In this document: positions 5,856 to 41,601 of the stretch, piece by piece | Numbering within the stretch: the first letter of the stretch is position 1 | How the letters are laid out: each line of letters opens with the position of its first letter | Source: Candidatus Bathyarchaeota archaeon | GTDB taxonomy: Archaea > Thermoproteota > Bathyarchaeia > 40CM-2-53-6 > RBG-13-38-9 | DNA length: 64,000 nt | Assembly (NCBI GenBank): GCA_963807605.1 | Contig: CAWECG010000004.1 | Span: forward strand, 1-64,000 | Reading direction: 5' to 3' | The notes under the pieces: model-generated | What the model was told of the DNA's origin: nothing | What the model saw: only the letters and a program-made list of their open reading frames with translations | Database searches by the model: none | Program-made: the position numbers and the translations under genes

Positions 5856-5875
5856 CGATAACGCGCGCGTTATCG
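5856..5875. repeat. Perfect 20-bp palindrome CGATAACGCGCGCGTTATCG; the longest member of the (CG)n tract family
   Basis: Read directly from the sequence. Confidence 0.9.
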
Positions 5876-6124
5876 ACGGTTAGTATGAATGGTGCTGCAT
5901 CCAAGTTCCTTACTGTTATGTTTACATGTTCATCTTCGTTTACAGAGACTATCTGAGGACAAAACTTATCGTATCTCTTCCCTCCAAGGTCTAGTGCGCG
6001 CGTTATTAGTGTAGGCTTCGCGTGTTCCTAAGTTATGCCGGTGCAGAAACTTTAAGCTCTATCTCGCTAAGAGGCATGATAGGCATCTTCAACGCGCGCT
6101 TCACCCTTTAAAGAGAAGTCAGCG

Positions 6125-7804
6125 ATGTTTGACTTAGCGAAAGATAATCCGATATTTTATCATGTGCTGGTTAGTGTTGTAGGTGTCGCTGCGGGCATCC
6201 TGACTTGTGCTTTCTATCTGGTATACCTGACCTTATGGTCAGAGATCACCAGAATCATAGAGTACTATAGACCCTTCGTTTTTGTTTCTGCCTTTCTAGC
6301 CTTGGGTTTGTCTTACTTACTAGTCAGACTTTTCGCAGAAACAAAGATCACAGGGAGTGGAACTCATACTGTCCTAGAGGTTTTCCACCTTAGAAATGGC
6401 GATGTGAGTTTTCGCGACGCATTGATCAAGCCCTTAGCGTCCATGTTTACCCTAGGATTCGGAGGAAGCGCTGGACCAGAGGGTCCCAGCTTGCTTCTCG
6501 GTGGGGGCGTAGCCTCGGGAATCTCAAAAAAGTTCAAAGTCAAAACAAGTTTCATGCGAAGCATATTTATCTCTGGTGCTGCTGCTGGTCTGTCCGCGAC
6601 GTTTAGAACTCCCCTGACCGGAATACTTTTCGCGTTGGAAATCCCTTATAAACGAGGATTTGAAAGGGAGACATTTATCGATGCTTCCATCGCCTCAATT
6701 GTGTCTTATCTTGTCGCAGTGACAATTCTGGGTAGTGAGAGGATTTTCAAGATTGTAGAGAATGTTCAACTATCTTTAGACAATATTCTTTTGTCTCTAC
6801 TCTTGGGGCTGCTATGCGGCGTCTATGCCCTATTTTTCGTCAAGACTTTCAATCTATTCGGAAGATTTGGATCGGAGATTAGAAAGAAAGCTGGAAGTTA
6901 CGGAATGATCGCTTTGGGTAGCATCATGTTGGGGGCAGCAGGATATTTCTCTCTTTTCAGCATTGGTGTAGGCCTGAATTTTGTCGACGCTCTCGTCTAT
7001 GGGGAAGCCATGACATTGACCTTTTTAGTCATTCTGATTCTAGTAAGGACTTTTGCAACCTGTGTAACCTTGAATTTCGGTGGTGGTGGGGGGCTCTTTT
7101 TCCCAACAATAGTTATTGGTGCAGGCATTGGTTACCTTTTCTCCACTATTTCAGGGACACCCTCGCAGGAGCTCTTTATTGCGATAGCTATAGCTGCTTT
7201 ACTGGCTGGAACGCACAAGATGCTTCTTACGCCCGTCGCTTTCATAGTTGAAACATTGGGGGGCGGTTATGCCATACCTGCCCTGCTTGCTAGCAGTGTA
7301 AGTTACTTGGTGTCGGGAAAGTCTTCGTTCTATCCCCTTCAACTTGATACAAAACTGAAGTATGAAGAGCTTGCCCTTCAAAGGTTCTACGTCGACGCGA
7401 AGAAATCGATTCCAGAACGCTTGCGTACCACTATGGCAAAGGACTTTATGACAAAGAATGTCTTAGCTCTAAACTTGGGAATGAACGTTAAAGATGCCTT
7501 AGGGAAGTTCAGTACGACACACTTCAGAGTCTTACCCGTTATAGATCAAGAATATGACGTTGTTGGATATGTGACTCTAGAAGATCTCGGACACATAAGA
7601 AAGATGCATTATGAGAAAGATATTTCAGAAATCTTGACTCATAAGCCTTTAACCGTCTATGAAGAGACTAGTCTGGAGAAAGTTGCCGATTCTATGATTG
7701 AGCGTGACGAAGACCACGTCTTCGTGACGGATAATAAGGGGAAACTCCTAGGAGTAATTGCAAGCATTGACGTGGTAAGAAAAATATTGGAGCTTTCCGC
7801 ATAA
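6125..7804 (+). CDS. CLC chloride channel/antiporter with C-terminal CBS pair
   Basis: GSGT, GSAGPEGP and GGGGGLFFP signatures; CBS domains (MAKDFMTKNV..., LLGVIASIDV). Confidence 0.92.
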   Translation: MFDLAKDNPIFYHVLVSVVGVAAGILTCAFYLVYLTLWSEITRIIEYYRPFVFVSAFLALGLSYLLVRLFAETKITGSGTHTVLEVFHLRNGDVSFRDALIKPLASMFTLGFGGSAGPEGPSLLLGGGVASGISKKFKVKTSFMRSIFISGAAAGLSATFRTPLTGILFALEIPYKRGFERETFIDASIASIVSYLVAVTILGSERIFKIVENVQLSLDNILLSLLLGLLCGVYALFFVKTFNLFGRFGSEIRKKAGSYGMIALGSIMLGAAGYFSLFSIGVGLNFVDALVYGEAMTLTFLVILILVRTFATCVTLNFGGGGGLFFPTIVIGAGIGYLFSTISGTPSQELFIAIAIAALLAGTHKMLLTPVAFIVETLGGGYAIPALLASSVSYLVSGKSSFYPLQLDTKLKYEELALQRFYVDAKKSIPERLRTTMAKDFMTKNVLALNLGMNVKDALGKFSTTHFRVLPVIDQEYDVVGYVTLEDLGHIRKMHYEKDISEILTHKPLTVYEETSLEKVADSMIERDEDHVFVTDNKGKLLGVIASIDVVRKILELSA

Positions 7805-8108
7805 GGAATCTACGCGCGCGTAATCCGTATGAAGCTCCTTCGCCACCGTAGCTACCTTAGCCGCGGCGCCAGAAGCATGCACTAGCCTAAGAAGTCGCCA
7901 TCTGACTTGTCTTGAGATTTGCTGGAAGCATTGACATGTTATCTATCTTTATTGATTAGGCCAAGTATATCCAAATCTCTCAAAGCGTTTTTCGATTTTC
8001 TGTAGCCGTGTTGTGCAGTAGATTTCCAAGACGTGGAAGCCAAAATCTAAAAGTAGATTGTGTCATTCAATTGTAACAACAAGCAATTGTCCAGCGTGAT
8101 AGCGACCT

Positions 8109-8840
8109 TTGAAATCAATGGAAGTGTACAGTGAAGAGAAAATCGAGAGTGAGCATCACGCGCGACGCACATTTCTTTCCGATTTCATCTTAGGAAGTCA
8201 AGACGGTCTTGTGAACGTTCTTGGTATCATTTTAGGAATGTCTGCGGCTACTCAGAATCTCCGGTTGATCTTCGTCGCAACTCTGGCTGCATTAGGAGCG
8301 GAATCGATATCGATGGGTGCGGTCGCGTACACGTCAACCGCCTCAAGGCGCCGTTTGTACTTGAGAGAAGTGGAACGCGAGAAGGGCGAAATGCGAGATG
8401 TTCCTGACCAAGAGCAACACGAAGTGCTAGAAATACTGAAAGGATGGAACTACAAGGGGGAAGAACTTGAGGAGCTGATGCGTCTGCTCGCCACAAACCC
8501 AAAAGCTATGTTAGAATTAATGATGTCATACGAGCTTGAGCTTGCCCCGGTTGGAGAGCATGAAGCTCGAAGAAGCTTCCTAACTGTCCTAACATCAACG
8601 TTGATGGGATCCTCTGTCCCTATCCTACCGTTCCTGTTCATTGGACACAATGTCATGGCCGGAACCTTCAGCTCCGTCATTATCAGTGGCACGGCCCTGT
8701 TCCTAATCGGATGGTTTGGAGCTAAAGCCACCATGGGATCACTCTGGAAAAACGGTCTAGAAATGGCGGCAATCGGTTTAGCCGCCGGGATCGCTGGCTT
8801 CCTAATCGGCTACTTACTCGGTGCCACTCCCGGATTATAA
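8109..8840 (+). CDS. VIT1/CCC1 family Fe/Mn transporter
   Basis: DFILGSQDGLV, AESISMGAVAY, acidic cytoplasmic loop, MMSYELEL. Confidence 0.9.
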   Translation: MKSMEVYSEEKIESEHHARRTFLSDFILGSQDGLVNVLGIILGMSAATQNLRLIFVATLAALGAESISMGAVAYTSTASRRRLYLREVEREKGEMRDVPDQEQHEVLEILKGWNYKGEELEELMRLLATNPKAMLELMMSYELELAPVGEHEARRSFLTVLTSTLMGSSVPILPFLFIGHNVMAGTFSSVIISGTALFLIGWFGAKATMGSLWKNGLEMAAIGLAAGIAGFLIGYLLGATPGL

Positions 8841-9121
8841 TCCTACGAGTGGTACAGATTTTTTAGCGCGGCTATTACGAGAAGGTGGTGCAGATGCATG
8901 GATTATCAAAGCAGTATCCTAGACGCAAGAATCCCACTCGCTGCACTCCTCTGCCCAATATATTTCCTGAGTCTGAGAAAGTGCAGGCTGAAGGTTTGAG
9001 CGCGCGCGCTCTACTGATGAGCGAATGTGCGCGCGTAAGCAAGTTCTTCTAACGTGCCAGCTTCCCTTTTTAGGTTCCTGGAAGGTCATACCGAAGTCGA
9101 TTAAGACGGTTTTGGCTTCAT

Positions 9122-10200
9122 TGCTGTGTTGCGCGACTAGGTTTCAGTGATGTTTTTCGCTTTTGTTGGCTGTCTTCAGGTTTCGTCTAGCCGTGTGTTG
9201 CTGTGGTTGTTTCTATCAGCATGTTGTATAGTGAGGCTTTGATCATCATCTCCTGTGCCATGTTTTGCATCGTTTTGGCTGAGACGTATTCTCCGAAGGT
9301 TCGCTTCAGCGATGAGAAGGCTGATTCAGCCATCCATCTATACCCGTAGCCATGATTGTGTTTCCAGGCTTCAGGGTCTTTGAGGTATTCTTGGGCTACG
9401 AGCTTTCTGGGCATGCATCCTCCGGCCCTGCTGGATGTGTTCTTGCGCACCTTGATGGCTGGCTCAATCCCTTTTGCGTTGAGATAGCGGAAGTTGCTTT
9501 TCATATCGTATGCTCCGTCACCAATTGCCTTGGCGACCTTACCTTTCTTGGAGGCTTCATCAACAAGCGGCTGGAGCATCCCTCCGTCACCTGTCTTCTC
9601 ATCCGTCACCTTCAAGGCGAGTATCTTCTTCCGCTTTACATCAACGGCGATATGGATCTTGAGGTATCCGCGTCTCACCTTCCATTTATGGCGTATCCAT
9701 TCGCCGCGGTTAGCCACCTTGATGCCTGATGCGTCCACCGCCAGGACTATGTCGTCGCCATAATCTTTCTCATCCAGCTTCACATCTAACCTGTTCACGC
9801 GTCTATCTATGGTTGAATAGTCAGGCACATGGATCCTTGAGTCGAATCTTCTCAGGGCTTTGAGGAATCCTTCTGTCTGCCTGTAGGGTAGGTGGAATAG
9901 CAGGTGCATGTAGCCTAGAAGCCTGATGAAGATCTCAGGGTAGACGTATTGTCCACCTTCCTTCCCAGTATTCATCTTTTCAAGCTCAATGTTCCACCTG
10001 TCAAGGATGCGTGGGTCAAGCAGGATCTCCCCACGCTTCACGAGACCCTCATTGATGCGTCTCCAATCTCTAGCAGCCAATCACAATCGTGGAATAGTTC
10101 TCTCACAGGCAATATAGATCATCCAACCACTTCCACGTCAATAAACCGAAAACTCAAACCTACATCCATAAACAAAAATGTCTAGTCATGCAACACAGCA
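9122..10200 (-). mobile_element. Complete IS5-family element with 19-bp imperfect TIRs and 8-bp target duplication
   Basis: Left TIR TGCTGTGTTGCGCGACTAG (9122-9140); right CTAGTCATGCAACACAGCA (10182-10200); GGCTTCAT duplicated at 9114-9121 and 10201-10208. Confidence 0.93.
9187..10080 (-). CDS. IS5-family DDE transposase
   Basis: W...NEGLVKRGE, PDYSTI, AVDASG, KIHIAVD, GDGAYD, Y..RWMAESAFS. Confidence 0.95.
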   Translation of the reverse strand: MAARDWRRINEGLVKRGEILLDPRILDRWNIELEKMNTGKEGGQYVYPEIFIRLLGYMHLLFHLPYRQTEGFLKALRRFDSRIHVPDYSTIDRRVNRLDVKLDEKDYGDDIVLAVDASGIKVANRGEWIRHKWKVRRGYLKIHIAVDVKRKKILALKVTDEKTGDGGMLQPLVDEASKKGKVAKAIGDGAYDMKSNFRYLNAKGIEPAIKVRKNTSSRAGGCMPRKLVAQEYLKDPEAWKHNHGYGYRWMAESAFSSLKRTFGEYVSAKTMQNMAQEMMIKASLYNMLIETTTATHG

Positions 10201-10272
10201 GGCTTCATCAGGGGCAGCAGGTCTGAAAACAGTCTTAACTTCAGGTTTCGATGCGTGCGCACACACAGGGGG

Positions 10273-12066: not shown

Positions 12067-12225
12067 TTCCTCGGGATATCTCTTCCCTAGACACTTGTTG
12101 AAGTCTGTAGCGCGCGCGGGCTTATCGTTTGCTCCTAACCAGAAAGGCTGGGAGCTTGATGCCCTGAAAGCCTTCGCTCAGGCCTGGACTTCCTGAGATA
12201 ACTTGTGGTCGTTTTCGCCATTTTA

Positions 12226-12371: not shown

Positions 12372-12683
12372 AACAGCGACACTGCCGAGTAGCACGCGCT
12401 GATAATGGTGAGTGGAAGTTAGATATCGTCAGAAACCAAAACAGTGATTCATCAAACAATTGGATGGCGGGTTAATAGTCACCGAAGAATGCTACTGCCA
12501 TGTTAGCGCGCGCGACCGTGTCGACAGTGAACTCACAGGGATACAGTCCCGAGGTAACGCAAGGATTCAACACACGCGGGCATTCCTAGCCGTCGAATCG
12601 CGCAGTAATGACACAATGGATTCTATTAAGCGCGTTTAATACTACATGAGACAGCGGTATTGAATCTTCTGATTAACTTGACG

Positions 12684-13571: not shown

Positions 13572-13924
13572 TTATCGAAAATAGGCCCCTTCCACTTACT
13601 CTCTGTTTTTCATCCAATCGCTTTCCTTTAGGTTGGGGAAGATATTGCGAATATCAGGCTTCTCTTAGGCTCTTTCTTATGAAATCCTACCCTTAAAGAC
13701 TTGCGAGTGCTCATGCAAATGGTAGCACAGCTGGCATGGAAATTATGTGCGTGTCAGCGCGCGCGAAGGTGAAATTAATTGGTCTGAACAATTGAAGAGA
13801 TCGACTTCTGAACTCACGAGCATGTCAGGAATTATGAATTTAACATCCGAAGAGGCATGGGAATTTTGTATGGATCCCCCTAGGGAGAAGGGGGCATGTT
13901 ACGGATCCGAGTCAGTATGATAAA

Positions 13925-14065: not shown

Positions 14066-14117
14066 GCAAAAGCTTATTGAGTTTTCATGGCATCTACCTC
14101 TGTTGGGGGAGGAGACT

Positions 14118-15239: not shown

Positions 15240-15362
15240 CGATCAAACAGCGCGCGCTGGAAGCGGATCTAGACAAAATAAGGCGCCAAAAGACAAACCT
15301 AGATATTGGACGGATTCTAATAAAGATCTGATAGGCATAAAATAACTAGTGACGCGATCCTT

Positions 15363-16664: not shown

Positions 16665-16703
16665 CATGAGGAGGAGGAATAGATTGTGTGTGCTCACCAG
16701 CTA
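16665..16703 (+). repeat. Dispersed repeat copy A (right half)
   Basis: CATG..GGAGGAATAGATTGTGTGTGCTCACCAGCTA. Confidence 0.8.
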
Positions 16704-16872
16704 TACTGACTACTGTAGCCTCTTCGCAACTCATCCTGAGATTGAGCGGCCATGCAAACGCAGACCAGACCTGCTCGCGAAGTTGAAACGCCAGGAGAGT
16801 CTTAACAGGAAGAATCTATTTTTGATCAGCTTAGGGTTTAGGTCTCCTTGGAGATATTGCCGACAGCAAGGA

Positions 16873-17282: not shown

Positions 17283-17376
<94 letters not shown>

Positions 17377-17566
17377 ACAGGGGATATAGGTAAGGAGGGG
17401 GTTTGCTGGGGTACGTTGAACCCTCTGTTTTCGACGTTGAACTTTAAACGTTGAAGTGGTTTTTGGCTTTTTTGGGTTTTGACGGGTTCAGCGTTGGCGT
17501 ATTTTTAGTGGCTGGATTGAAATTGTCTTGTTTGATTAGCAACTTAGCAACTGATAACATGCAAAG

Positions 17567-19351: not shown

Positions 19352-19430
<79 letters not shown>

Positions 19431-19655: not shown

Positions 19656-19695
19656 AGGAATCCATTGTGTGTGCTCACCAGCTATGGCACGCACA
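19656..19695 (+). repeat. Dispersed repeat copy D (right half)
   Basis: AGGAATCCATTGTGTGTGCTCACCAGCTATGGCACGCACA. Confidence 0.85.
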
Positions 19696-19756
19696 AAAAA
19701 AAACTAAAACCTAATGGTCCGAATTACGATGCCTGCACCAAAGGATACACACACGT

Positions 19757-20263: not shown

Positions 20264-20298
20264 AATATAATCTTAAGCACGCGCGCTGCGTGTGCTTG

Positions 20299-21141: not shown

Positions 21142-21143
21142 TT

Positions 21144-21482: not shown

Positions 21483-21601
21483 AAATCATAATTTTCTACA
21501 GATTGAGACTGAAGCGCGCGCGTAGTTAAACATTTGAGGCTATATGTCTTGCTGCCCGTGGACAAGAGATACCCAAGATAGAGATTAGTGAGCGTGCGCG
21601 C

Positions 21602-21895
21602 GTGCTAGGGAATACGCGGTTAGAGCTAGAACACTTCGACAAAGACTTTGATAGACTCACAGATCCGAAGAACAAGGTCAAACGAGGATACCTACTATTC
21701 TTCGTGAGAAGACAAGACTTCAAGGGCTCAGGTATGCTGCCGATAATCAATCAGTTGCCGAAAAGATTTCAAGAGAAAGCTGAAAAGAGTCGAGACCGCA
21801 CAAGCAACCTTGCGATCGTCTACGCTGAATCTCAATGCCGAGACTCCGGTCGTCCCATAGTGATACCTGAAGACCAATCATCTTGGATCGGATAG
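21602..21895 (+). pseudogene. Hypothetical gene fragment, possibly the C-terminal part of a larger protein
   Basis: Protein-like ORF that begins within the GCGTGCGCGCGTGC tract. Confidence 0.3.
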
Positions 21896-22416
21896 CGCGT
21901 ACGTTTTCGCTCAGACCATCAACGAAATGCTGATTATCCCTTAGTCCGAATATGTAGATATTTGAAGAACCCTAGTCGAGATGTTCCTAACATTGGAATA
22001 TTGGGTGATCTGAAGCGTCGCCGCGCGCGCTTTCTTGCATCCGTTTTGACTGGGGGCTAGTCTTCTTCTTAAAGACCTGCCAGTCCTCCCCAGCCTTAAG
22101 ATCCCCCGGCCTAGTAAGCGATAATGCCGGCTTACTCGAAATCTCCTTCACGGCAGCATCTGCCAAGTTAGGATCCAGTTTCTTAAGGGCTAGGTAAGAT
22201 TCATTCAGCACGCGCGGCAGGAGCCTCTACGAGCAAGAGGTTAAGAAATACCAAATCCCTGAATACGTGTACGCACTGAGACTCTTCCATCATGTTACCG
22301 TAATCGTAGAAACAACCCTTAGAAACCACCACAGTCATTTTGTTGAATATGTGGATCCCGGGCGTAAAATGGAACTGCGTCAAGATCCTAAATGACCTGA
22401 CAAGAGGTCAGATGGT

Positions 22417-23202: not shown

Positions 23203-23507
23203 GCCATGGGAGGTCTATCGAAATCTCAAGAGATAGACATCGCGGCATGAAGAACAAAACGATGTTAGCCTGCTCAAAAGTTTCTATCGATTCTTTCTGA
23301 GTTTCTTGATCGAAGCCTGTAATCGCATCTGAGTCTCGCTCAGAAACATCTCTCGTGTTCGAGAGCCCTTACTACTATCACTCAGGTTTACACTCTGACT
23401 TGTTGTGTTCTAAACGCGCGCGCTAAAACTAGTGCGAATTCAAAGTATTGTCGTACAGCAAGAATTATATATTTAAGAACGTTAATCTGGAGCGCGACTG
23501 GTAGCAG

Positions 23508-25025: not shown

Positions 25026-25117
25026 TCTATAAGCAAACCGAAAAGAGTTCACAATATGATGAGCAAGCGCGCGCTAACATAACGATTATCAAAGAATGAA
25101 CTCGGAGAAACAGAAAA

Positions 25118-25264
25118 ATGAAAAATAGAAAAATAAAGAGAATCGTTAGAGAAGGTTACGCCAAGCTCGCTAAGCAGCCCAGTTCCTGTTGCACTCCTAC
25201 TAGTACATGTCGCGGAAGCGTTGACTTGGTCGAGGATATCAGTAAGAAGAACGCGCGCGCTTAG
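25118..25264 (+). pseudogene. arsM: 5' fragment of a second arsM, truncated at a (CG)n tract
   Basis: MKNRKIKRIVREGYAKLAKQPSSCCTPTSTC...ISKK aligns by eye with the ArsM N-terminus MKEDQIKKVVRQKYGELARTERSCC...LSKK, then runs into ACGCGCGCGC and a TAG. Confidence 0.8.
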
Positions 25265-25348: not shown

Positions 25349-25708
25349 ATGGATAAAACGAAGCACGAACCCGCAGAGAAAAAGCAACCAGAAGCTACGC
25401 GCTTGGTAATATTCTTGCCGGGAATAGAGAGATCGACTGAGAAAACACTTCGAGTCGCCGCTGTGACCGACGAGGGAAAGATCGATACTACCAGAGATGA
25501 CACCGTAGAACTTTCAATAAACAATGAGGGTCGCATGCGCTTCAAGGACTCATCAAAAAATGTGCAACTCAAATTGATTAATGGAGAAGCGAATGCGACG
25601 GTTATATCAGATCAGTCACATGGAGTCTCAATCTTCAAAGCCAGGTGGATAGGTGGGAAGACACCTCTTCAGCCAATACAAGTAACTTCTATCTTTGTTC
25701 CTGGATGA
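25349..25708 (+). CDS. Hypothetical beta-rich protein upstream of arsC
   Basis: 119 aa ORF co-oriented with arsC, 30 bp upstream of it. Confidence 0.55.
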   Translation: MDKTKHEPAEKKQPEATRLVIFLPGIERSTEKTLRVAAVTDEGKIDTTRDDTVELSINNEGRMRFKDSSKNVQLKLINGEANATVISDQSHGVSIFKARWIGGKTPLQPIQVTSIFVPG

Positions 25709-25738
25709 GTATGTTTGGCCCATAGTTGGTGAGCAAGT

Positions 25739-26149
25739 ATGAAGCGACTGTTATTCGTGTGTGTCGAGAACGCTGGGAGGAGTCAAATGGCTGAGGCTTT
25801 CGCCAATCACTATGGAAAGGGAAAGGTAGTTGCGTCTAGCGCTGGTGTGAAATTGGCTGAAAGGGTGAATCCTCTGGTCGTTGATGTGATGAAAGAGAAA
25901 GGAATCGATATATCTGGAAACAAGCCAAAGCTGCTGAGCCCAAAGATGGCGGAAGTGGTTGATCAAATCATATCGATGGGCTGCAGCGTGGAAGAGGTCT
26001 GCCCGGCAATACGCGCGCGCGTCAGGAATGTAGTGGATTGGGATCTAGAAGATCCGAAAGGAAAGCCGATGGAGAAGGTTCGAGAGATAAGAAACGAAGT
26101 AGAGCGAAAAGTGTTGAGGTTACTCGCTGAAATCGAAGAGCCCGACTGA
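25739..26149 (+). CDS. arsC: Thioredoxin-type (LMW-PTP fold) arsenate reductase
   Basis: FVCVENAGRSQMAE, MGCSVEEVCP, WDLEDP. Confidence 0.93.
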   Translation: MKRLLFVCVENAGRSQMAEAFANHYGKGKVVASSAGVKLAERVNPLVVDVMKEKGIDISGNKPKLLSPKMAEVVDQIISMGCSVEEVCPAIRARVRNVVDWDLEDPKGKPMEKVREIRNEVERKVLRLLAEIEEPD

Positions 26150-26192
26150 AGCCGATACTTAGCACGCTGCACAATAGGCACGCGCGCGCGTA

Positions 26193-26272
26193 GTGTGTTC
26201 CTTGGTGAGAGCGTCGTAATTTGAACCCTCATGGGAGGAATAGTGTGTATGCTCACCATCTAGACTACACAC
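26193..26272 (+). repeat. Dispersed repeat copy E (full)
   Basis: GTGTGTTCCTTGGTGAG-AGCGTC-GTAATTTGAACC...GGAGGAATAGTGTGTATG-CTCACCATCTAGACTACACAC. Confidence 0.85.
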
Positions 26273-26549
26273 AATTACCTTGGCCTAATCCTCACGTCGA
26301 GCCGAAGCGTTCCTCGGCTTCATACACAGGGGGAGGACCCGTCAGAATGTTTTGTTTGAGTATGGTCTCTGCGTACGCGTTCTGGGGGGAGAAAGGGTTT
26401 GTCCACTAATGCCGACCATTGTCAGTAATATTTGTGACTAACCCAACGTTAAGTAGGACCCTTGTGTCAGTTGTTATGACTGGAGTATACTTGAAATCAA
26501 ATACTATCTTTGCCATAGTCTTACTCTATCGTCTGGGGATGCGCAGTTC

Positions 26550-27209
26550 ATGAAGCTTAGTAGAAGAGCGCTGTTACGTTCAATTCCATTCATAGGTGCT
26601 GCCATTGTTACGGGTTCATGGTGGTTTCTGAACGAGAGAAGACAGAATACAGTAAGTCAGATTCTAACAGGGGAAACGACTGTCCAATCCCGAACCATGA
26701 CTGGCTCATCTGAAACTACAACGATTCCAACTGAAACAAGTACGTTCACTGGAAAGCCTTTCGAGTTTCAAGTAACATGGAATGGAGACGGGCCAACCGA
26801 GGTAAATCTGGCAGATTACCGGCTAACAGTCGATGGAGACGTTTCAAATCCTCTACAACTTACCATAGAAGATCTACGTCGTATGCCCGCCGTCAAAAGG
26901 ACTGTGAACATCGCATGTGTCACGGGATGGAATACCGACGTCCCATGGGAAGGCATACTCTTAACATATCTTCTCGACCTAGCAGGAGCGCCCACGAGCA
27001 TCGATCACCTCACGTTTGAAAGCGTCACAGGTTACAAAATAGACGTTAGCGGAAGTCAGCTAGCAAATCCCGATAATATGATTGCCTTGAAGGCCGGTGA
27101 TGCTCCGTTAAGTGAAGCACATGGATACCCAACTAGACTTGTAGTCCCCACATTCCCCGGTGAAGACTGGGTAAAGTACGTGAAAAGAATAACCTGCACA
27201 AAGACGTGA
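26550..27209 (+). CDS. Sulfite-oxidase-family molybdopterin protein with Tat signal
   Basis: MKLSRRALLR signal, YRLTVDGDV.NP, IACVTGW (Mo ligand Cys), HGYPTRLVVP, WVKYV. Confidence 0.9.
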   Translation: MKLSRRALLRSIPFIGAAIVTGSWWFLNERRQNTVSQILTGETTVQSRTMTGSSETTTIPTETSTFTGKPFEFQVTWNGDGPTEVNLADYRLTVDGDVSNPLQLTIEDLRRMPAVKRTVNIACVTGWNTDVPWEGILLTYLLDLAGAPTSIDHLTFESVTGYKIDVSGSQLANPDNMIALKAGDAPLSEAHGYPTRLVVPTFPGEDWVKYVKRITCTKT

Positions 27210-27265
27210 ATGCTTTTCTAAAATCAGAGCGATCACCAGACTCGTGAATTCAGTAATAACTGTGC

Positions 27266-27510
27266 TCACGTAGCCATAGCCTTCAGCTTGGCTAGTAAAA
27301 GCTCTCTGACCTCTGGATCCTCCAGGAGATTGTCCATCACGCTATAGATCTTCGATTCTTCTTCATGTAGTTGGATGGCCGTTTTCATGTCTAATGGGAA
27401 TCCACACCGTGAGCAGAAGCTGCTGGTAGGCGAATTTGACTCTTGACAGCCCAAACACTTCCTGATTTTCAACTTGTGCTCTTCGTTGTTCACTTCATCT
27501 TCAGTCTTGA
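27266..27510 (-). pseudogene. C-terminal Zn-ribbon tail remnant of an archaeal tyrosine recombinase/integrase
   Basis: KCLGCQESNSPTSSFCSRCGFPLD...LLEDPEV resembles the tail typical of archaeal site-specific integrases; catalytic domain absent. Confidence 0.6.
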
Positions 27511-27794
27511 TGCTCAGGTATCTTTAGCAAAAACCCTGGTTTCTTTTCGCCGGTAGACGGAAGCTGAAGGACTCTCCGTCCTCTTCAATGCTCTCTATAG
27601 CGTCTTCTCTTTGGGACTACTGGCTAGCTTGTGGTACCTGCTCATCTCAGAGCTCATCAGAGCGAGAAGAATAAGCCAATGGACAGGGAGGCTTCAGATG
27701 CCAGATATTAAATTATTCTGCGATCGCGAGTTTGAGTCTAAACGGCGAGTCAGGGGAAAGGATTCAAACGCGTCTTTATCGGCAAACCCTGCTG

Positions 27795-29423
27795 CTAATG
27801 TGTGATGGTGGTCTCGACGGTTATGTCTACTAAGTGATACCCGGTTGAGCCGCTTGGAAATGGGCTCTGGATATTGGCGGTCTGGGTTTTCCCCGTCTTG
27901 TCCGTCGCTCGTACAATGATATGGTAGTCGCCTTTTGTCGGGGGGTTCCATTCGGTTGCCCAGAAAACCCACGTGTATCCTGATAAAGGGTCTTTGAGGC
28001 TGGCGGTCTCCCAGGTTGTGCCACCGTCTGTGCTAACCTCAACCTTCATTATTCCGCGACTGCCTGCGAAAGCTATGCCGGCGATCGGCGCCATGCTGCC
28101 CGCCAGCACTTTCGAGGAGCCCAGCTCCACAAACCTCCTTCTAACCGGGCTATCTCCGGGGATGACTATGGTTGATTGAGTATGGTACTCGGCGTTGTTG
28201 CTCCAGCCCCTCCTCTGCCAGAAGCCTTGATGAACCTGGTCGACAATTTCAATGTCCGTTACCCATTTCGCGTTCAACATGCCATATAGGCCGGGAACAA
28301 TAGCCCTCAGAGGCCGGCCGTGTTCCTGTGGAAGAGGCACGCCGTTCATCTCGTACACCAATAGGGTGTCATCAAGAAGCGCTCTCTCCATAGGGATTCC
28401 AACATCGTAGTCGTCGGCGCATCTGAAAACCACGTACACCGCCCCAGACTTAACCTGCGCCTTCTCAAGCAAATCCTTCAAGCGGATTCCTTTCCAGAGG
28501 GCGTTGCTGATCAGATCACCTCCAACTTCGTTGCTTACGCACTCAAGCGTGTTGTACTGATCGACCGCCTGCATCGACTTCAAGTCCGCGTAGCTGAGAG
28601 TCAGCGGGTTGTTGACCAAACCGTGTAGAGAAAGCTTCCAGGCATAAACGTCAATCGCCGGCGGTGAGAGGTTCACGTCCACCCTGTAGAATTGATCGTT
28701 AGCAGTCACTTCTGACGCAACAAATGAAGTTAGCATCGGATCCGCGAAAATACCTTTAGTTTCTGACGGAGGCCTCACAACCTCCGATGTTGGGGTCTGC
28801 TGGCTTGACGGGAAAAAGATATCAAGTCCATAGAAGAGAATAATGGACGCGACTGTGCCTGCGGCAGCCGCGCGGATAAGCAGCCTTCTTCTGTAACCCA
28901 TCCCTGACAAAGCTGTAGGTGTTCCCTCTTGAACAGCGCTCGCTTCGTGGAATGTCATGGCAGATAAGTAGGTTAGGGAGAAGCCGAAGACCAACTGGGC
29001 GGGGAGAAGATAGAGAGCCGCTAGCTGAATTGAGATAGACTGGGTCGAAATCTCGGTTATCCCTAGAAAGGTGACCGATGCGAGCAGCAAAATCAAGTAA
29101 GCGAGCAGCGAGAATCCTAGAGCTTTAGGCACGTATCCCTTTCCGGCAAACCTGGGTCGTAAGCCTTGAAGAATCGCTCCAAGAACGCCGTAGATAGCAA
29201 GATTGACACAGATCGCGCCTATCAACACAGAATACTTGGCAACAGAGCCAAGCGCCTCCACGGCTCGCGACTCTATTTGCACAGGTGTTATGGAGAACAG
29301 GGTTTGTGCAGCAAGTTCAGGAACAAACAATCCGCCCGATAGGATCCTGAGAAGAAAAGAGAGGAAGATCGCAAAAGCCCCTGCCGTAACCCCTATCCAG
29401 AACCCTCGAGCCTTGTCGTCCAT
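27795..29423 (-). CDS. Polytopic membrane sulfite-oxidase-family molybdoenzyme
   Basis: Several N-terminal TM helices, internal YRRRLL, FYRVD, TLECVSNEVGGDLISNA.W.G, HGRPLR.IVPGLYG, Mo-co dimerisation domain. Confidence 0.92.
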   Translation of the reverse strand: MDDKARGFWIGVTAGAFAIFLSFLLRILSGGLFVPELAAQTLFSITPVQIESRAVEALGSVAKYSVLIGAICVNLAIYGVLGAILQGLRPRFAGKGYVPKALGFSLLAYLILLLASVTFLGITEISTQSISIQLAALYLLPAQLVFGFSLTYLSAMTFHEASAVQEGTPTALSGMGYRRRLLIRAAAAGTVASIILFYGLDIFFPSSQQTPTSEVVRPPSETKGIFADPMLTSFVASEVTANDQFYRVDVNLSPPAIDVYAWKLSLHGLVNNPLTLSYADLKSMQAVDQYNTLECVSNEVGGDLISNALWKGIRLKDLLEKAQVKSGAVYVVFRCADDYDVGIPMERALLDDTLLVYEMNGVPLPQEHGRPLRAIVPGLYGMLNAKWVTDIEIVDQVHQGFWQRRGWSNNAEYHTQSTIVIPGDSPVRRRFVELGSSKVLAGSMAPIAGIAFAGSRGIMKVEVSTDGGTTWETASLKDPLSGYTWVFWATEWNPPTKGDYHIIVRATDKTGKTQTANIQSPFPSGSTGYHLVDITVETTITH

Positions 29424-29956
29424 CGCGTACTCCTTACCGCTCTACTAGCCTCGCCAATAAATAAATGTCGGTTGACCCTAACGATAAGGCGTGGTCGGAT
29501 CGAACCGTCGATAGTTTCTGAAAGGGAGATAGTACACATCAGCCCTAGACAGGGAAACTTTCTCTCTTGATGTTTGTAAATTCTCTTCCGCTTTTCTAAT
29601 TGCTGATGCGTTAGATCAATGCTGAAAGTCTCCCTCAGTAGCCTTGCACAAAAGAGCATCCGTTGTGTAGCCTGTTCTACACTCTACGTCTAATATCTGA
29701 AGTCTTTCGCATACCCTAGTTCTATGACAAGATCTCTCATACCCTCCTTGCAGAAATTGTATGTTTACGCAATCATGGATCTTTGAGAAGTAGCTGTGGA
29801 ACATTATTGCCCTACATTCATCCGCAAGAAAAGGAAGTTCTCGACATCGAGTGGTTATCTTCTTCGAAAAATCTTCTTTCAAAATGATGATATACGCAGC
29901 GCGCGCTAATAATAATCACACTAAAATACCAAAATGACAGATATTTAGTGCGTCGT

Positions 29957-30734: not shown

Positions 30735-30848
30735 ACATGCTTCAGCTCCACGGACCTTTCTGTCAACATGTCCAAATATTTCTTGCTGGAGGGATTCTTC
30801 CCCTGACTATTGAAGAAGGTAGAACCAGAAGATGAGGTGTCTCTTTTT

Positions 30849-30906
30849 TGTGTGTGGCCTAGCTGGTGAGCACACACAAAATTCATGACTCAACGGTTCA
30901 AATTAC
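30849..30906 (-). repeat. Dispersed repeat copy G (minus strand)
   Basis: Reverse complement reads GTAATTTGAACCGTTGAGTCATGAATTTTGTGTGTGCTCACCAGCTAGGCCACACACA. Confidence 0.88.
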
Positions 30907-31120: not shown

Positions 31121-31246
31121 ACATTAGTCACCTCTCATATACAACATAGCACTAACACTCGAATAAGCAACTTCCGACAATAGCGCGCGCTATGTTATGA
31201 CTGTCTAGAATTCAGAAGAATGGGCCTCTCCAGTCATGAGTATAGA

Positions 31247-31811: not shown

Positions 31812-31880
31812 CTGGTGAGGGCGTTTAGGATTTGAATCGTTAGAGCGAACTATTTTTGGTGGTGGTGTGCTCACCAGCTA
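31812..31880 (+). repeat. Dispersed repeat copy H (full)
   Basis: CTGGTGAG-GGCGTTT-AGGATTTGAATCGTTAGAGCGAACT-...TGGTGGTGTG-CTCACCAGCTA. Confidence 0.85.
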
Positions 31881-31943
31881 AGTTTAATTATCTAGTAATA
31901 CCTCATAACGCGTGGACTATTGACGCAAAGGTGTTGAATCGGG

Positions 31944-33367: not shown

Positions 33368-33435
33368 CGCAAGCGTTATTGTCTCTTTGCTATTGCCAAG
33401 AAGAAGCGCGCGCTAAGGAGGAGACCTGCCACTTC

Positions 33436-34860: not shown

Positions 34861-34918
34861 GGATCACATCGTTTCGAAGGATATATAACAGGCTTGCAGG
34901 AAAGACCAATCGTCTCTG

Positions 34919-35376: not shown

Positions 35377-35766
35377 TTAGCCAGTCCGGGTTGTCTCTTC
35401 CTCGATAGTTAGAGCCTTAATCGGGCTTAGTTCAATTCCAGAGCCGGATTCATCGACTATAAGATCTTTCAGCACCTTCGTAACGTGTTCAATTTCGCTC
35501 TCTTGGATGCTCTCATCAACGTATAGGTTTATTTTGCCGCGTGGAGAAATCTGAACATGAGCCAACCTACCAAAACCTTTTCTTGATTTTTCACGGTTCT
35601 TTGAAGTTTCTGAAGGTCTTTTCACTTCAAAGAAGACAACGTCTTTCTCGGAGTCTAAGAATACGACTCTTTTATCCCGAGATATTCTCGTCACTGTCTT
35701 GTCGTAATGGATTTGCCTCCTTGCTTGATAGACGACCTGTTCTTTGTGTGAATGTTGCTTCTTCAT
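35377..35766 (-). CDS. Hypothetical protein
   Basis: 129 aa ORF divergent from parB. Confidence 0.5.
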   Translation of the reverse strand: MKKQHSHKEQVVYQARRQIHYDKTVTRISRDKRVVFLDSEKDVVFFEVKRPSETSKNREKSRKGFGRLAHVQISPRGKINLYVDESIQESEIEHVTKVLKDLIVDESGSGIELSPIKALTIEEETTRTG

Positions 35767-35837
35767 GATCCAACAGTAAGATGGGGTAGGGGTGGACCTG
35801 TATAACTATATTCAAAAAACAAGGGAGGTGATTTCAT

Positions 35838-36767: not shown

Positions 36768-36964
36768 AAGCTCTATCGGAGTTCTGGAAGTACACAGATA
36801 GCTGATATGTCTTTGCAGGTCAACATCGAGTGCGTCTCCCAGTCCGAACGCGCTTGGCAAGCAACTTTAGGAGGAGCACGTGCTCCTCCCTTTTTTCATA
36901 TTACTGATCAGATATCACTGTGCTTTTCCGGTTTGAATTCTACGCGCTCGCTTTTTGTGGCGGA

Positions 36965-37081
36965 CCGGGCGGAGTCGTCCTACCAACTAACAAGCTTGAG
37001 ATCCTAACACCCTACCTAACATCAGCAGGACTAGTCGCTGCGGTATCCGCAGTTGTAGTGGTTAAGAGAAGAAGAGCCTAG
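36965..37081 (+). pseudogene. Orphan C-terminal membrane-anchor module, copy 1
   Basis: PGGVVLPTNKLEILTPYLTSAGLVAAVSAVVVVKRRRA*. Confidence 0.7.
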
Positions 37082-37148
37082 TCGCTCGAGTTCTGTCAAG
37101 TCTACGGGTGATTTGTCTCCCTGTTAACAGCCGGGTGACATCATCGGA

Positions 37149-37409
37149 CTAGCGCGCGCGTGGTCGGCCTTTTTTGGCCGCTTCCTCATATCTCTTCAGT
37201 TCGCTCAGAGTTTTGCCTTTGTTGTTGTGGTAGTCGGGGTTGTTTGGATTTAGTTTGATTGCGATTTCGTACTCACTGTCCGCTTCCCCAAATCTCTCCA
37301 GGTAGATCAAAGTGTTGCCTTTGTTGTTGTGGTAGTCGGGGTTGTTTGGATTTAGGGAGATTGCCATGTCGTACTCCTCAACCGCTTCCTCAAATCTCTG
37401 CTCACACAA
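37149..37409 (-). pseudogene. TPR-repeat fragment
   Basis: Two 34-aa TPR units (102-nt period; LNPNNPDYHNNKG); ends in a (CG)n tract. Confidence 0.75.
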
Positions 37410-37771
37410 TTATTTAGAAAAAGCAGTCCCTTCAATATATGCGTTTAATCTGCTTTTTATATCTCATCGTGGCTTCGACCATTATTTGTTATAGATTTAG
37501 TATACCTAAGTATTCTTCATTATGGCTTCAGGAACATGGCTTCGCTCAGCCTTATAGTAAGTGGATGGTATGCAGATTATGGGTGTGCTCGACTCTATGC
37601 TGGGCAGCTATAATGCTGGGGGTTCAGTGTGTAAGATAGAGCGTGCACTGAATTTTATGTCGAGGATTATGTGGAATCAGTCCTTTCGTTTTTATGATTC
37701 TTTATACTTGCATAAAGACGGGCCTCCTGACACCGCTCTTCTAAAGCTCTTTGTCGGATAAGTCTGGAGAG

Positions 37772-37888
37772 CCTGTCGGCGGGCTAGTGACGCCGATGAA
37801 CAAGCTTGAGATTCTAACACCCTACTTAGCGTTAGCAGGACTTATAGCATTATCAGCGGTTGTAGTGGCTAAGAAAAAAAGAGCTTAG
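37772..37888 (+). pseudogene. Orphan C-terminal membrane-anchor module, copy 2
   Basis: PVGGLVTPMNKLEILTPYLALAGLIALSAVVVAKKKRA*. Confidence 0.7.
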
Positions 37889-37942
37889 TCGCTCGAAAGG
37901 CAATTATCCAACGTGGCGACTACGCTTTAGTCTATAGCGCGC

Positions 37943-38050
37943 GCGGCCGTGGTCTAGTCTGGTCTAGGACGGGAGATAAAGAACTTTGCCCGAGCTTCCC
38001 ATTCTAGGAGAGAGCTCTTAGCCCGGGTCCGAATCCCGGCGGCCGCACCA
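37943..38050 (+). tRNA. tRNA-Gly(CCC) with two introns (30/31: 37976-37994; 37/38: 38002-38012) and encoded CCA
   Basis: Acceptor GCGGCCG/CGGCCGC+ACCA, D-stem GTCT/GGAC, anticodon stem GGAGC/GCTCT with CCC after removing both inserts, T-stem CCGGG/CCCGG; BHB-like motifs at both introns. Confidence 0.9.
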
Positions 38051-38571
38051 TTCTCCTGCGCATTGACGAGCGGATTAGTGAGCTTCAGGAGTTCTCGCAC
38101 TATCTGTACGGCACCATTTTTCTTGCATATTCGGATTCACATAGTTAGAGTCTCACAAGCGGATCCTGCCTATGCCAAGGAGCAAAAATCAGATCGATTA
38201 TCTGCAAAGGTTAATTGGAAAGAGAGATGATTAGCTTAATGACCTTGGGCCATAAATCACTGATCGAATGGACTGATTCAACATGAAATCTTGCCACTCG
38301 GTGTACTAGATACGTAGCACGACTATGAAGTCCTGCGGAGAATTCTGATAATCTGTGTTGCCAAGGGTGACTGGTTTGATCCACACGTCGAACTCGATTA
38401 TCAATCCTTTGTCAGCGTCGACAATTGAACCACTGGATTCTGTATCCGTTTCTAGAACCAAGATTCCTCGATTCCCTTTTGTCCGCCATGAGTGAGCCGA
38501 GTCTTCAGTCTCGTCTGCTAGTTCAGAGAAATATCTTCAATGCCCGCCAAGAATCAACTTGCGCTGTTTTC

Positions 38572-39351
38572 TTAATTGCAGAGGACTATCCCTGTTGGGT
38601 CTATCTTGTGAAGGATCTTCAATTCTTTTCTCGTAGGGACTTCGCTTATTCCCACATTTTCGGGCACTATCAACTCGAAGCAGCAGTTCTTCCTAATCTC
38701 ATCAATATGTACGCCTGGATGAAGGGAGATCAGCATCATTCGTTTTGTCGTCTCATCAAATCCATACACTCCGAGCTGGGTTATGACTCTGTAGGGACCG
38801 GTATCTTCTGCAAGTCCTATTCTTTCTCTCTCGCCAGGCCCTGTCAAGTACCCAGGGGTCGTCATGAAATCTAGTCTGTTGACAAACCTCTTCTTGTCTT
38901 GTCTCATTATTATAATGTTCTCATGGCATAGGGACCCTATGTCGTTTGCCCCGCCACTGCCTGGAAGGCGTACCTTTGGTCTTTCATATTCACCAATCAC
39001 AGTTGTATTGATGTTGCCGAACATGTCTATCTGAGCTGCACCCAAGAAACCATAGTCTACAAATCCAGCTTGGAGGGCCGACATAACGTCATGCATACTT
39101 GAAGCGGCTACGCCCTGATAGAAAGTTCTGGAATCCCCCACAGATACCGGCAAGACAGGACTTTGAGGACCTATGCCTCCGGCCTCATACATTACAAGTA
39201 GGTTTGGTGCATGAGTCTTCTGAGCCAGCATCGCAGCTATCACAGGAAGACCAGTTCCTACAAATACTGATTTTCCATCCTTCAACATCTTTGACGCTAT
39301 CGACGCCATCAATTCGACTTGGGTGTAACTAGTTCTTCCCTCGCCCATCAT
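38572..39351 (-). CDS. gctB: Glutaconate CoA-transferase-like subunit B
   Basis: FVGTGLP, YEAG (catalytic Glu), GAAQID.FGNINTT, LPGSGGAND. Confidence 0.88.
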   Translation of the reverse strand: MMGEGRTSYTQVELMASIASKMLKDGKSVFVGTGLPVIAAMLAQKTHAPNLLVMYEAGGIGPQSPVLPVSVGDSRTFYQGVAASSMHDVMSALQAGFVDYGFLGAAQIDMFGNINTTVIGEYERPKVRLPGSGGANDIGSLCHENIIIMRQDKKRFVNRLDFMTTPGYLTGPGERERIGLAEDTGPYRVITQLGVYGFDETTKRMMLISLHPGVHIDEIRKNCCFELIVPENVGISEVPTRKELKILHKIDPTGIVLCN

Positions 39352-40355
39352 CTCGTCCTCTTCAAGTTTCGGCCAGCCGTTCTCTCAATACTCTCTAAGC
39401 GTCTCAATTTCTTCTGTCCGCCTATGAGCCTAAGATACTGACTAAACGAGTCAACTGAATAGACATATTTCTCAAGATACTCTCTGACACCATCGTCGCT
39501 CTTGGAAAGGCTAAGCCATTCAGAGATATGTTCTTCATCAAAGAAGTATTGGAGGGGCATTTGACATGGGTGTGCGCCGTAGGGCGCCTCGACAACCGCA
39601 TCGACGTAGTAGAATGGAATTGTGGTCTTCCAGGGTTTACTACTGACGTCTCTGTGAGGAATTATCTCTTCTGTGGTGAGAATAAGTCTGCGAGAAGCGC
39701 GTGAAAGCTCGAAATCTTCAACCAACGCACCATCAATTTGAGCATTGCCGTACTTGTCGCAACGATGAACGTGAACAAGTCCGACATCAGGATTGCATGA
39801 GGGGATCAAGGTCAAAGGCTTGCCCGTGAACGGGCATCGAATAATCTTTGCTGAACTCTTCTCGAATGTATTCGTTCCAGACAATATTCTTGAAGGGACG
39901 AAGGGAATGCCCATCATGCCTGCCAAGAAACGCCACTGATATCCCGCATTGCTTATCTCAGAGACAACTCTGCATTTCCCAGCCTCAACTGCCCTTCTGG
40001 ATGCATTAGATAACCCTCTTAGCTCGTGTCCGAAAGAGTAGGCCACCTCGACCTTGTCTACACATCCTGCAGCCACCAATAGGTCGATGTCGTGTACCGC
40101 TGTCTTGCCTGCCATGGTTAAGTCATTCTTTTGCTGTCTGATCAATTCATAGACGATAGACATCGAGACTCTGATTTGCCCGAAGCCGCCGGACGCTATG
40201 AAATCTCCAGAATTAACAAATTTCGAGACTGCATCTTTCGCGCTCATTTGCTTGTCAATGAGTTCTCTCGACTTGTTCTCGAAGTTCCATCTTCGGTTTT
40301 CATCAGGATCCCTGAAACCAACCAGTTTTCCGTGACCTTCAGCAATAATATCCAA
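39348..40355 (-). CDS. gctA: Glutaconate CoA-transferase-like subunit A
   Basis: IASGGF, AGMMGIPFVP, PDVGLVHVHRCDKYGNA, VVEAPYGAHP; overlaps subunit B by 4 nt. Confidence 0.88.
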   Translation of the reverse strand: MDIIAEGHGKLVGFRDPDENRRWNFENKSRELIDKQMSAKDAVSKFVNSGDFIASGGFGQIRVSMSIVYELIRQQKNDLTMAGKTAVHDIDLLVAAGCVDKVEVAYSFGHELRGLSNASRRAVEAGKCRVVSEISNAGYQWRFLAGMMGIPFVPSRILSGTNTFEKSSAKIIRCPFTGKPLTLIPSCNPDVGLVHVHRCDKYGNAQIDGALVEDFELSRASRRLILTTEEIIPHRDVSSKPWKTTIPFYYVDAVVEAPYGAHPCQMPLQYFFDEEHISEWLSLSKSDDGVREYLEKYVYSVDSFSQYLRLIGGQKKLRRLESIERTAGRNLKRTR

Positions 40356-40748
40356 TCAATCGACACCCGAAGTTTGGTGGACTTCACACTCTCCGTGACT
40401 TAAACGTTGGTTTTCCTGGAGAAGGGAAATGCGCGCATTGGATCCTGACCGGTCCACCAAGCTCAAGCACGCGATAGTCGACAAGACGGATGTGCCAGAT
40501 TCAAGAACTTTGCTCTTCAGACTATGGTGCTGATTCAGCTCACCGCTACCATAATGCCTCCTCTAGTCTTATCGAACACCAGCGATGAGTCCATCGTAAC
40601 TGTATCTGACGTATCCTGTCGGTCATGTTAAGCTGAGCGCACGTTCAACGACGCTATCCAACCTAGGTACTCTATGTTTCTAGACAATATGCTATGGTTG
40701 CTTCTACGTGTGCGCTTAAGTTGCTGTTACAAGATAGCCGCGGGCACC

Positions 40749-41495
40749 ATGAAGCCCGTTCTTTTTTTATTAATACTGTCTATTGTGCTCACGCCGTCTT
40801 TCGCTCCATCAGGAGCGCTATCAAACTCTGCTTTGAGGTTTAACAAGACTGGAACGAGTTTAAACTGGTCAGGTTATGTGGTCGAAACAAGTCTTACTTC
40901 ACCACAGAAGGGAGCTGTAACAGATGTTAAGGGCACGTGGATACTTCCTTCAGTTCATCATTGGATCATGCCGAACGCTGCTTCCTCTGTTTGGATAGGG
41001 ATAGATGGTAATTCCTCTATTGAACAAATAGGAACTGATTCTGACTATTCTTCAGGAACGCCAACATATTATGCTTGGTATGAAATATATCCAAATAATG
41101 CTGTAATGGTAAACCTGAAGATTTCTCCTGGAGACAAGATATCCGCCGAAGTCAAATACCTGGGACAAGATAACTTCCGACTGATGATTAATGACACAAC
41201 GACTGGGAAGAGTTTTTCAACAACTCAAAAAGCGCCCGCAGCTCAAGAATCGTCTGCTGAATGGATAGTGGAGGCGCCATCTTATGCATATTTCATTCTG
41301 CCATTAGCAAATTTTGGAACTGTTACTTTCACAAACGCTCAGGCAACTCTGAACGGACATACCGGTACGATAAGCGATGCTGCATGGAAATATGAGGCAA
41401 TAAATATGACTACGTCCTCCGGGACCATCAGAGCCCAACCATTGACTCTCGCAAGTAGCGGAACAAGCTTCTCAGTGATATGGCATCGGTTATAG
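40749..41495 (+). CDS. G1-family glutamic endopeptidase (eqolisin), secreted
   Basis: Signal MKPVLFLLIL, SLNWSGY, WIGIDG, IEQIGT, YYAWYE, SSAEWIVEAP, LANFGTVTF. Confidence 0.88.
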   Translation: MKPVLFLLILSIVLTPSFAPSGALSNSALRFNKTGTSLNWSGYVVETSLTSPQKGAVTDVKGTWILPSVHHWIMPNAASSVWIGIDGNSSIEQIGTDSDYSSGTPTYYAWYEIYPNNAVMVNLKISPGDKISAEVKYLGQDNFRLMINDTTTGKSFSTTQKAPAAQESSAEWIVEAPSYAYFILPLANFGTVTFTNAQATLNGHTGTISDAAWKYEAINMTTSSGTIRAQPLTLASSGTSFSVIWHRL

Positions 41496-41601
41496 AGCAG
41501 CACCTTTTCTTGAAACGTTACATAGCCTCTCTCGTTTCCCAATTCAACATGCGCGCGTTCAAAGATGATTTAATCGGTCATAATATGTGTTACGCGCGCG
41601 C

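Follow-up and report, generated by a model that had tools for sequence, protein, structure and literature searches.

What do the short runs of alternating C and G that recur in a stretch of DNA of Candidatus Bathyarchaeota archaeon (contig CAWECG010000004.1), an archaeon of sediment or soil, represent? The stretch, called the window here, covers positions 1-64000 and opens contig C4 of the source genome (G000; 2.65 Mb, 94% complete, with contigs designated C1 to C4). Bathyarchaeia such as RBG_13_38_9 are its closest named relatives. A tract was defined as a perfect alternating C/G run, and the main count included runs of at least 8 nt. Comparison with tract-free copies of the same sequences indicates that the tracts are very probably scars made at the joint. 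They were probably, with less assurance, laid down by an end-joining route in which each end is independently given a self-complementary tail.

Tracts, breakpoints and tract-free copies

The recount returned exactly the 21 tracts of at least 8 nt and the six 7-mers listed in the initial annotation, at the same coordinates (Table 1). Seven tracts are 8 nt long, 11 are 9 nt and 3 are 10 nt; approximately 0.74 tracts of at least 8 nt would be expected by chance under a first-order Markov model. As had been noted, there is no tract of at least 8 nt in positions 41602-64000. The description of the tracts as nearly all intergenic holds for most of them, and fails for the one at 26012, which sits within an intact arsC-like gene. 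Confinement to accessory DNA proved to be relative: the most conserved bins carry 1.0 tract per 20 kb, compared with approximately 2.5-3 elsewhere. In G168, a genome of another order, tracts are evenly spread along the genome. The tracts are real and not artefacts of assembly, as shown by a separate short-read contig (ERR10755942, possibly from the same sample as G000) that was 100% identical over 25690-28239, including two 10-nt tracts. The motif is also present in many other metagenome-assembled genomes (MAGs), which likewise argues against an artefact.

G000 as a whole has 320 tracts of at least 8 nt, compared with 23 (Markov order 1) or 31 (order 3) expected. The length distribution peaks at exactly 8 nt (198 8-mers versus 127 7-mers), and GCGCGCGC is both the most over-represented 8-mer (17-fold) and the commonest form (147), mostly as WA-GCGCGCGC-TW. 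An A stands at position -1 in 85% and a T at -2 in 46%; past these two flanking bases no conserved arms were found in G000 or G168. Lengths step by 2 nt within one phase and differ between genomes, and both phases and mixed odd lengths (7-, 9- and 11-mers) occur. Most G000 tracts lie outside real genes, clustered in variable DNA with some in conserved regions, and they showed no preferred distance to starts or stops and no preferred gene orientation. Versions with one mismatch were found at about 125 sites versus 30 in the control, with transitions twice as frequent as either transversion class; the tracts decay by ordinary substitutions, as expected of unselected scars.

The suggestion that tracts coincide with breakpoints of rearrangement or gene capture was borne out by repeat ends, by G168 and by joints in other samples. 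Repeat-segment ends in G000 fall at tract edges in 39 of 791 cases versus 3.2 in shifted controls, with a gap peak at 0-1 nt, and in G168 in 11 of 276 versus 1.35. In contigs from other samples, joints with the window fall at 29899 and 33404, and matches to it end at 21602 and 31178. The runs X1 and X2, which represent other samples, match only small shares of the window and are therefore uninformative about habitat.

In the flank test, 73 tract flanks had a close homologue whose other copy is without the tract, and 26 had one with it; among the latter, 12 represent one locus retrieved two times and 2 are ends of insertion sequences (IS), leaving about 12 real shared tracts. The clearest newly made scar in the window is that in arsC. 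Here 4 nt (CTTC) were replaced in frame by (CG)5 with the gene left intact, so that arsC is two codons longer than its homologues. The protein reads CPAI-RARV-RN, compared with CPAI-LL-RN in a 93% identical protein and its close allies, and 14 of 14 aligned homologues, the window's own allele aside, are two residues shorter. At the DNA level, L387 to L391 hold the ancestral allele (~92% identity) and L392 the window allele. Other micro-replacements are 6 nt by a 10-nt tract (C1:353532), 6 nt by a 9-nt tract in frame (C3:74808) and 3 nt by a 10-nt tract (G168); in all of them, arsC included, the two flanks adjoin without interruption in the donor. In one step, such changes are impossible by target-site duplication or by a recombination site.

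Larger losses and captures gave similar pictures. A 252-bp deletion was sealed by a tract absent from both breakpoints, deletions of 945 and 2061 bp in G168 were sealed by a new tract, and a 2655-bp deletion in run X1 was sealed by a tract at the joint 27294/29950, although the last case may instead consist of two separate deletions flanking the old tract 29899. In G001, a 233-bp piece 98% identical to C1:475185-475417 of G000 lies between two tracts missing in the donor. In a minority of cases old tracts were reused, as IS targets or as 8-9-nt microhomologies, and the tract at 12110 is an old one reused as short homology. The CLC segment of the window has a copy in C1 with its own 11-nt tract flush with its start, a tract that the window copy does not have.

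As a separate observation, segments of G001 L135:1-4952 are 96-98% identical to G000 islands and the core genes approximately 73% identical; island identity so far above that of the core indicates recent gene transfer between both species.

The anatomy of the joint was read from 66 tract flanks aligned to a donor at 90% identity or more. Twenty-eight joints are flush with the donor, 22 of them ending in A and 24 having microhomology of 0-1 nt; 14 carry one extra A, which follows T in 13; and the remainder, about a third of the 66, have 2-10 further non-donor bases. Joined ends gain 7-12 alternating C/G bases that have almost no homology to the ends themselves, and the retained end is usually A, or T plus an added A. 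Mirror symmetry between left and right flanks was no higher than in shuffled pairs, and the two halves of the joint are independent. Context shared between different tracts was slightly above shuffled values in G000 (113 versus 85-109) and within them in G168 (125 versus 102-142). As in filler insertion, the inserted bases are absent from both parental ends and are found alike at deletions, insertions and small resealed breaks.

Proposed route and competing explanations

Independent tailing is suggested by the independent halves, the anatomy of the joint, a shared context at chance level, the mixed phases and lengths, and the mode of decay. Two ends are joined when a break is resealed with loss of 3-6 nt, when a deletion of up to kilobases is closed, or when an arbitrary fragment is captured. 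A primase- or terminal-transferase-like activity, aligning on 1-2 nt, would extend each 3' end alone, adding about six bases that read (T)A-GCGC or (T)A-CGCG. Because such tails would be self-complementary, any two tailed ends could pair via 2-5 GC pairs, and the paired tails would then be filled and ligated; differing overlaps would yield lengths of 7-12 and mixed phases. The scars would persist mainly under weak selection, and would for this reason punctuate mosaic regions and mimic cassette borders. Tentatively, a dedicated enzyme, moving laterally or repeatedly lost, may give any broken end a (T)A(GC)n tail with no external nucleic acid serving as template. If true, this would be a natural "universal linker ligation" for repair and homology-free gene capture in several Thermoproteota classes.

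Among known systems, PriSL of Saccharolobus islandicus repairs double-strand breaks by archaeal, Ku-independent end joining with terminal transfer, annealing of ends via 2-4 GC pairs and C/G-biased insertions (PMC12019639), and the tracts resemble its products in these respects. However, the tracts join unrelated ends, number hundreds per genome and are restricted to some lineages, whereas PriSL is universal. TdT, polymerases mu and theta and bacterial LigD/Ku leave N-nucleotide or templated insertions at end-joining junctions, either of random sequence or copying the flanks. Like the tracts, they show new bases at the joint with limited resection and little microhomology; the fixed, self-complementary sequence is peculiar to the tracts. 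Non-homologous end joining by Ku/LigD differs further in that Ku and LigD are present in G000 and were not found in the other positive genomes tested, and PolX is not motif-linked. Judged from sequence, the tracts seem to work like filler insertion in end joining, and not to be a HIP1 element, a cassette site or an IS footprint.

Several points weigh against the tailing route. None of the tested candidate enzymes tracks the motif. The PriS tree follows taxonomy, and a single, uninformative positive-specific column was seen among 8 positive and 2 negative genomes. The rule of A after T resembles alignment to a template, and a template was not found. PriSL scars are 1-2 nt long (PMC12019639), compared with a fixed 8-10-mer, and a 7-12-nt alternating linker overall, in the present case. 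The direction of change is taken from outgroups, and is strong for arsC and weaker for pairwise duplicates.

The main rival is a repair scar made by copying, since A after T may mean alignment to a short template. An end would prime on an existing TA(GC)4TA palindrome, or capture a short palindromic oligonucleotide, with 1-2 nt of homology; this would be a templated insertion of the polymerase-theta or template-switching kind, and the motif would breed itself. The extra A after T in 13 of 14 cases, as if aligned to a template starting TA, and the 2-10 further non-donor bases at about a third of the joints would fit. Copying is nevertheless unlikely, as tracts share little more flank than shuffled pairs do, the two halves of the joint are independent, and a fixed oligonucleotide would not yield mixed 7-, 9- and 11-mers. 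Snap-back synthesis was not clearly supported, the mirror excess being missing, and neither was copying together with flanks from other tracts.

Footprints of inserting or excising IS or miniature inverted-repeat transposable elements with GCGC ends are an improbable origin, although two related 1.1-kb DDE elements of G000, IS-A and IS-B (transposases 41% identical, 14 near-full copies), lie inside tracts with GCGC on both sides. IS-A (DDE_Tnp_1 and DUF772; nearest models IS1182/IS5, below their cut-offs) has 7 near-full copies in G000, and target duplications of 4, 2 or 0 bases are all compatible with both elements. The flanks of these elements mirror the variety of the tracts in phase, length and W flanks, as expected for targets. 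Micro-replacements delete target bases rather than duplicate them, and no multicopy tract-bounded element was found in 1.6 Mb of the fragmented G168 assembly. No member of the family was found in 8 motif-rich genomes of the order, and the motif-poor G012 and G008 do carry it; it therefore uses tracts as targets, as a follower and not the cause, and the IS-A family transposase was rejected as the agent. IS1182/IS5-type elements such as IS1272 target palindromes (PMC5678879), as IS-A and IS-B do by inserting within the tract, but this likeness covers followers only. There are about 20 tracts for every IS, and genomes in which no member of the family was found have tracts as well.

Gene modules bounded by a recurring recombination site are known from integron attC cassettes and pdif modules, and the modules of the window are apparently bounded in a comparable way. 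The initial annotation had taken the tracts for a pre-existing recombination signal, cassette boundary, or binding or methylase site. A cassette system (integron-, pdif- or HIP1-like) whose capture sites are duplicated on insertion would agree with tracts on both sides of captured pieces, with the coincidence with breakpoints and with the few tracts common to both copies where homology ends. As the main nature of the tracts, however, a pre-existing site does not stand: donor copies are mostly tract-free, so that the site was not in donor and recipient beforehand, and new tracts lie at deletions and at 3-6-nt replacements, also within genes. Recombinase-binding arms, an imperfect hairpin and an adjacent recombinase are missing, the bounded pieces are arbitrary fragments, and decay is by ordinary substitution. 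Five G000 integrases lie in tRNA- or island-type contexts (contexts only; distribution not profiled). The cassette-site explanation, which the arsC allele appears already to have largely refuted, has little to recommend it.

A protein binding site, or a methyl-directed conversion product as proposed for HIP1, is very improbable: the short palindrome of preferred length 8 and the prevalence of transitions in decayed copies would suit it, but tracts arise by indels and not point conversion, they keep no preferred distance or orientation to genes, and a pattern scan of G000, a weak test, found no 5mC methyltransferase motif. HIP1 of cyanobacteria (GCGATCGC) is likewise a highly over-represented GC-rich palindromic octamer, but is of fixed length, is tied to DNA methyltransferases and has a proposed origin in biased point mutation (PMC4390886), whereas the tracts vary in length and phase, are mostly non-coding and are made at junctions.

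Distribution of the motif and candidate enzymes

The motif AGCGCGCGCT is abundant in 10 of 16 genomes of the G000 family and absent from G005 and G011; it is at background level in 59 of 59 genomes of another family, abundant in single genomes of two further families, and found again in parts of two families of other orders. G168 (39.8% GC) has approximately 360 tracts in 1.6 Mb; they share the TA flank and measure 6, 8, 10 and 12 nt. Outside the class, members of one genus have 118, 88, 70, 33, 32, 18 and 16 copies, and others 0-3. In g136, G413 has 118, G441 88 and G469 70, and G427, G476 and G509 have 0. Positive and negative genomes likewise stand side by side in g100 (G391 and G294, respectively), g114 (G349 and G386), g16 (G101 and G031) and family f1 (G000 and G003, and G005 and G011). 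Across Thermoproteota the motif has a patchy occurrence, down to the level of a single genus, and is found in other orders and outside the class, so that it is not the lineage-specific signal initially proposed. A double-motif scan of genome and viral collections returned mostly GC-rich chance matches and three Bathyarchaeia contigs, and a description of the motif was not found in literature searches. The genomes compared are MAGs, 66-100% complete, and the absence of single genes is therefore soft evidence.

Each of ten candidate agents was either missing or not co-distributed with the motif. The G000 repertoire includes a Ku-LigD-ligase operon, PolX, two extra PriS-like proteins, a solo Cas1 and a nucleotidyltransferase-kinase fusion; no reverse transcriptase was found in G000. 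Ku was not found in the motif-rich G003 and G101 or in 1.6 Mb of G168, and the LigD primase-polymerase not in G003, G101, G413, G441 or the same 1.6 Mb. The operon itself (C1:589618-592231; L152) is a complete bacterial-type end-joining operon with LigD primase-polymerase, Ku and a split ATP-dependent ligase, of a kind rare in archaea. Of 64 genomes in a motif-poor family, 58 have PolX, as does 1 of the 14 other genomes of the G000 family. A mobile PriS-like protein (C3:72234) is in 5 of 105 genomes. The second PriS-like protein (C3:316905-317681; L198:4905-5681), a stand-alone protein of 258 aa conserved in 26 of 105 genomes of the order, is present in the motif-free G005 and G011 and in many of family f2.

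The solo Cas1 (C3:803495-804703; L197:5495-6703; 402 aa) is common in the motif-poor f2 and was not found in f17 and f27. It has a C-terminal extension and no adjoining CRISPR or PolB, and its many full and broken copies, in 35 of 401 genomes of the class and nearly all in this order, suggest a casposon-like mobile family. An RNase HII-like orphan (C1:350335-350931; L196:10335-10931) belongs to an archaeal family that has no Pfam match and resembles RNase HII in an N-terminal motif; its distribution does not follow that of the tracts. The nucleotidyltransferase-kinase fusion (C4:287693-289336; 547 aa), with a nucleotidyltransferase-like N-terminus and a kinase-like C-terminus as read from motifs, is conserved in Bathyarchaeia; it occurs in negative genomes, and none was found in the positives of g136. 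Nor does a shared loss of herA-nurA-mre11-rad50 account for the motif, since G168 has the operon. G000 has no clear counterpart of it, with a weak mre11/rad50-like pair at C1:514600-518000, and this may be a gap because the genome is 94% complete. Intersection of the proteome with that of G168 (1.6 of 1.98 Mb, with N gaps) gave no convincing shared gene.

PriS and PriL are present in motif-positive genomes and also in negative ones; PriSL of G000 lies at C3:1004488-1006975. A PriS variant was rejected, as no residues are motif-linked in the ten genomes compared and the tree is taxonomic; for these reasons PriSL by itself leaves the patchy distribution unexplained. The best lead for the enzyme, from the literature only, is PriSL or one of its accessory factors.

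Features of the window and implications

Coordinates are collected in Table 1. An Rfam search gave no match. In the module labelled acdA-lrp by the initial annotation, the lrp label was not confirmed, the ORF after acdA (35377-35766) being without a Pfam match.

Table 1. Alternating C/G tracts and associated features of the window
Positions	Strand	Feature
5862-5869		(CG)4 tract, TAA/TTA flanks, intergenic
5996-6002		7-nt tract, left of the start (6015) of the CLC segment, which is duplicated at C1:217023
6015-7807	+	CLC channel segment, 98.9% identical to C1:217023-218813
6093-6099		7-nt tract upstream of the CLC start codon
7813-7820		(CG)4 tract, 5 nt past the end of the duplicated CLC segment; other copy without tract
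9000-9009		(GC)5 tract, intergenic
9029-9035		7-nt tract, intergenic
12110-12118		9-nt tract, left end of a 400-bp segment common with C3:169056; in both copies; outer flanks differ
12506-12514		9-nt tract, right end of the 400-bp segment; C3 copy has three C-to-T changes
13757-13765		9-nt tract, intergenic
15250-15257		(GC)4 tract directly 3' of the M50 peptidase stop
20280-20286		7-nt tract, intergenic
21514-21522		9-nt tract, intergenic
21596-21602		7-nt tract; contig matches from two other studies end at 21602
22022-22030		9-nt tract upstream of mtrA-like gene
23415-23423		9-nt tract upstream of arsR-acr3
25067-25074		(GC)4 tract downstream of acr3
25252-25260		9-nt tract flush with segment; copies at C1:353671 and C3:584765 tract-free
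25739-26149	+	arsC-like gene (PF01451), intact
26012-26021		(CG)5 in place of CTTC, inside arsC
26181-26190		(CG)5 downstream of arsC; L387 homology stops at 26168; run X2 loose ends at 26193
29899-29906		(GC)4 tract; run X2 contig joins 27532 to exactly 29899 with 9 other letters between
31183-31190		(GC)4 tract; C3:712364 copy (100% over 79 nt) without tract and without the preceding A
33406-33413		(GC)4 tract; run X2 contig joins 33358 to 33404
35255-35263		9-nt tract, intergenic
37152-37160		9-nt tract downstream of parB
37937-37945		9-nt tract, intergenic
41551-41557		7-nt tract, intergenic
41593-41601		left portion of the IS-split tract
41602-42727	+	IS-A, 1.1-kb DDE insertion sequence within tract
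42727-42732		right portion of the IS-split tract

Other repeats were also seen in the window. An IS5-family element (NF033579) at 9122-10201, with 8 copies approximately 100% identical in G000, is not inserted at CG tracts. A second dispersed repeat (16675-16705, 17300-17380, 19365-19423, 19656-19700, 26216-26274, 30844-30906 and 31827-31885) is present about 60-70 times in G000, with a single match in the 1.6 Mb of G168. It consists of a TG/TGG run, GTGCTCACCA and one of two continuations, often followed by CA/CGA runs; TG runs reach 116 nt, and part of the repeat resembles a reversed tRNA 3' end. It has the look of a mobile element family whose ends have recombined and whose simple repeats are unstable, and some joints in runs X1 and X2 are located on it as well. 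Adjoining joints of these two runs is a 3' fragment of an integrase gene (27284-27484; residues 336-402 of the C3:391896 protein), with 82% DNA identity to C2:57076-57328. Two copies of a decayed unit lie approximately 810 bp apart (36968-37896), together with a 102-bp tandem duplication (37175-37378) between the tracts at 37152 and 37937.

As judged from these comparisons, the feature is real and widespread and points to an undescribed route of break repair and uptake of foreign DNA. The tracts bear on how Ku-less archaea repair double-strand breaks and integrate foreign DNA without homology. Since the pathway marks its joints legibly, all those made in a genome in the past can be mapped and counted, and with positive and negative genomes in the same genus the enzyme should be findable by profiling. 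If the proposed route is true, the polymerase behind it, by making arbitrary ends cohesive through a fixed palindromic tail, would represent a biochemical activity that is new and possibly of use in cloning, and the mosaic of Bathyarchaeia genes for resistance, transport and redox functions would be explained without a cassette system.

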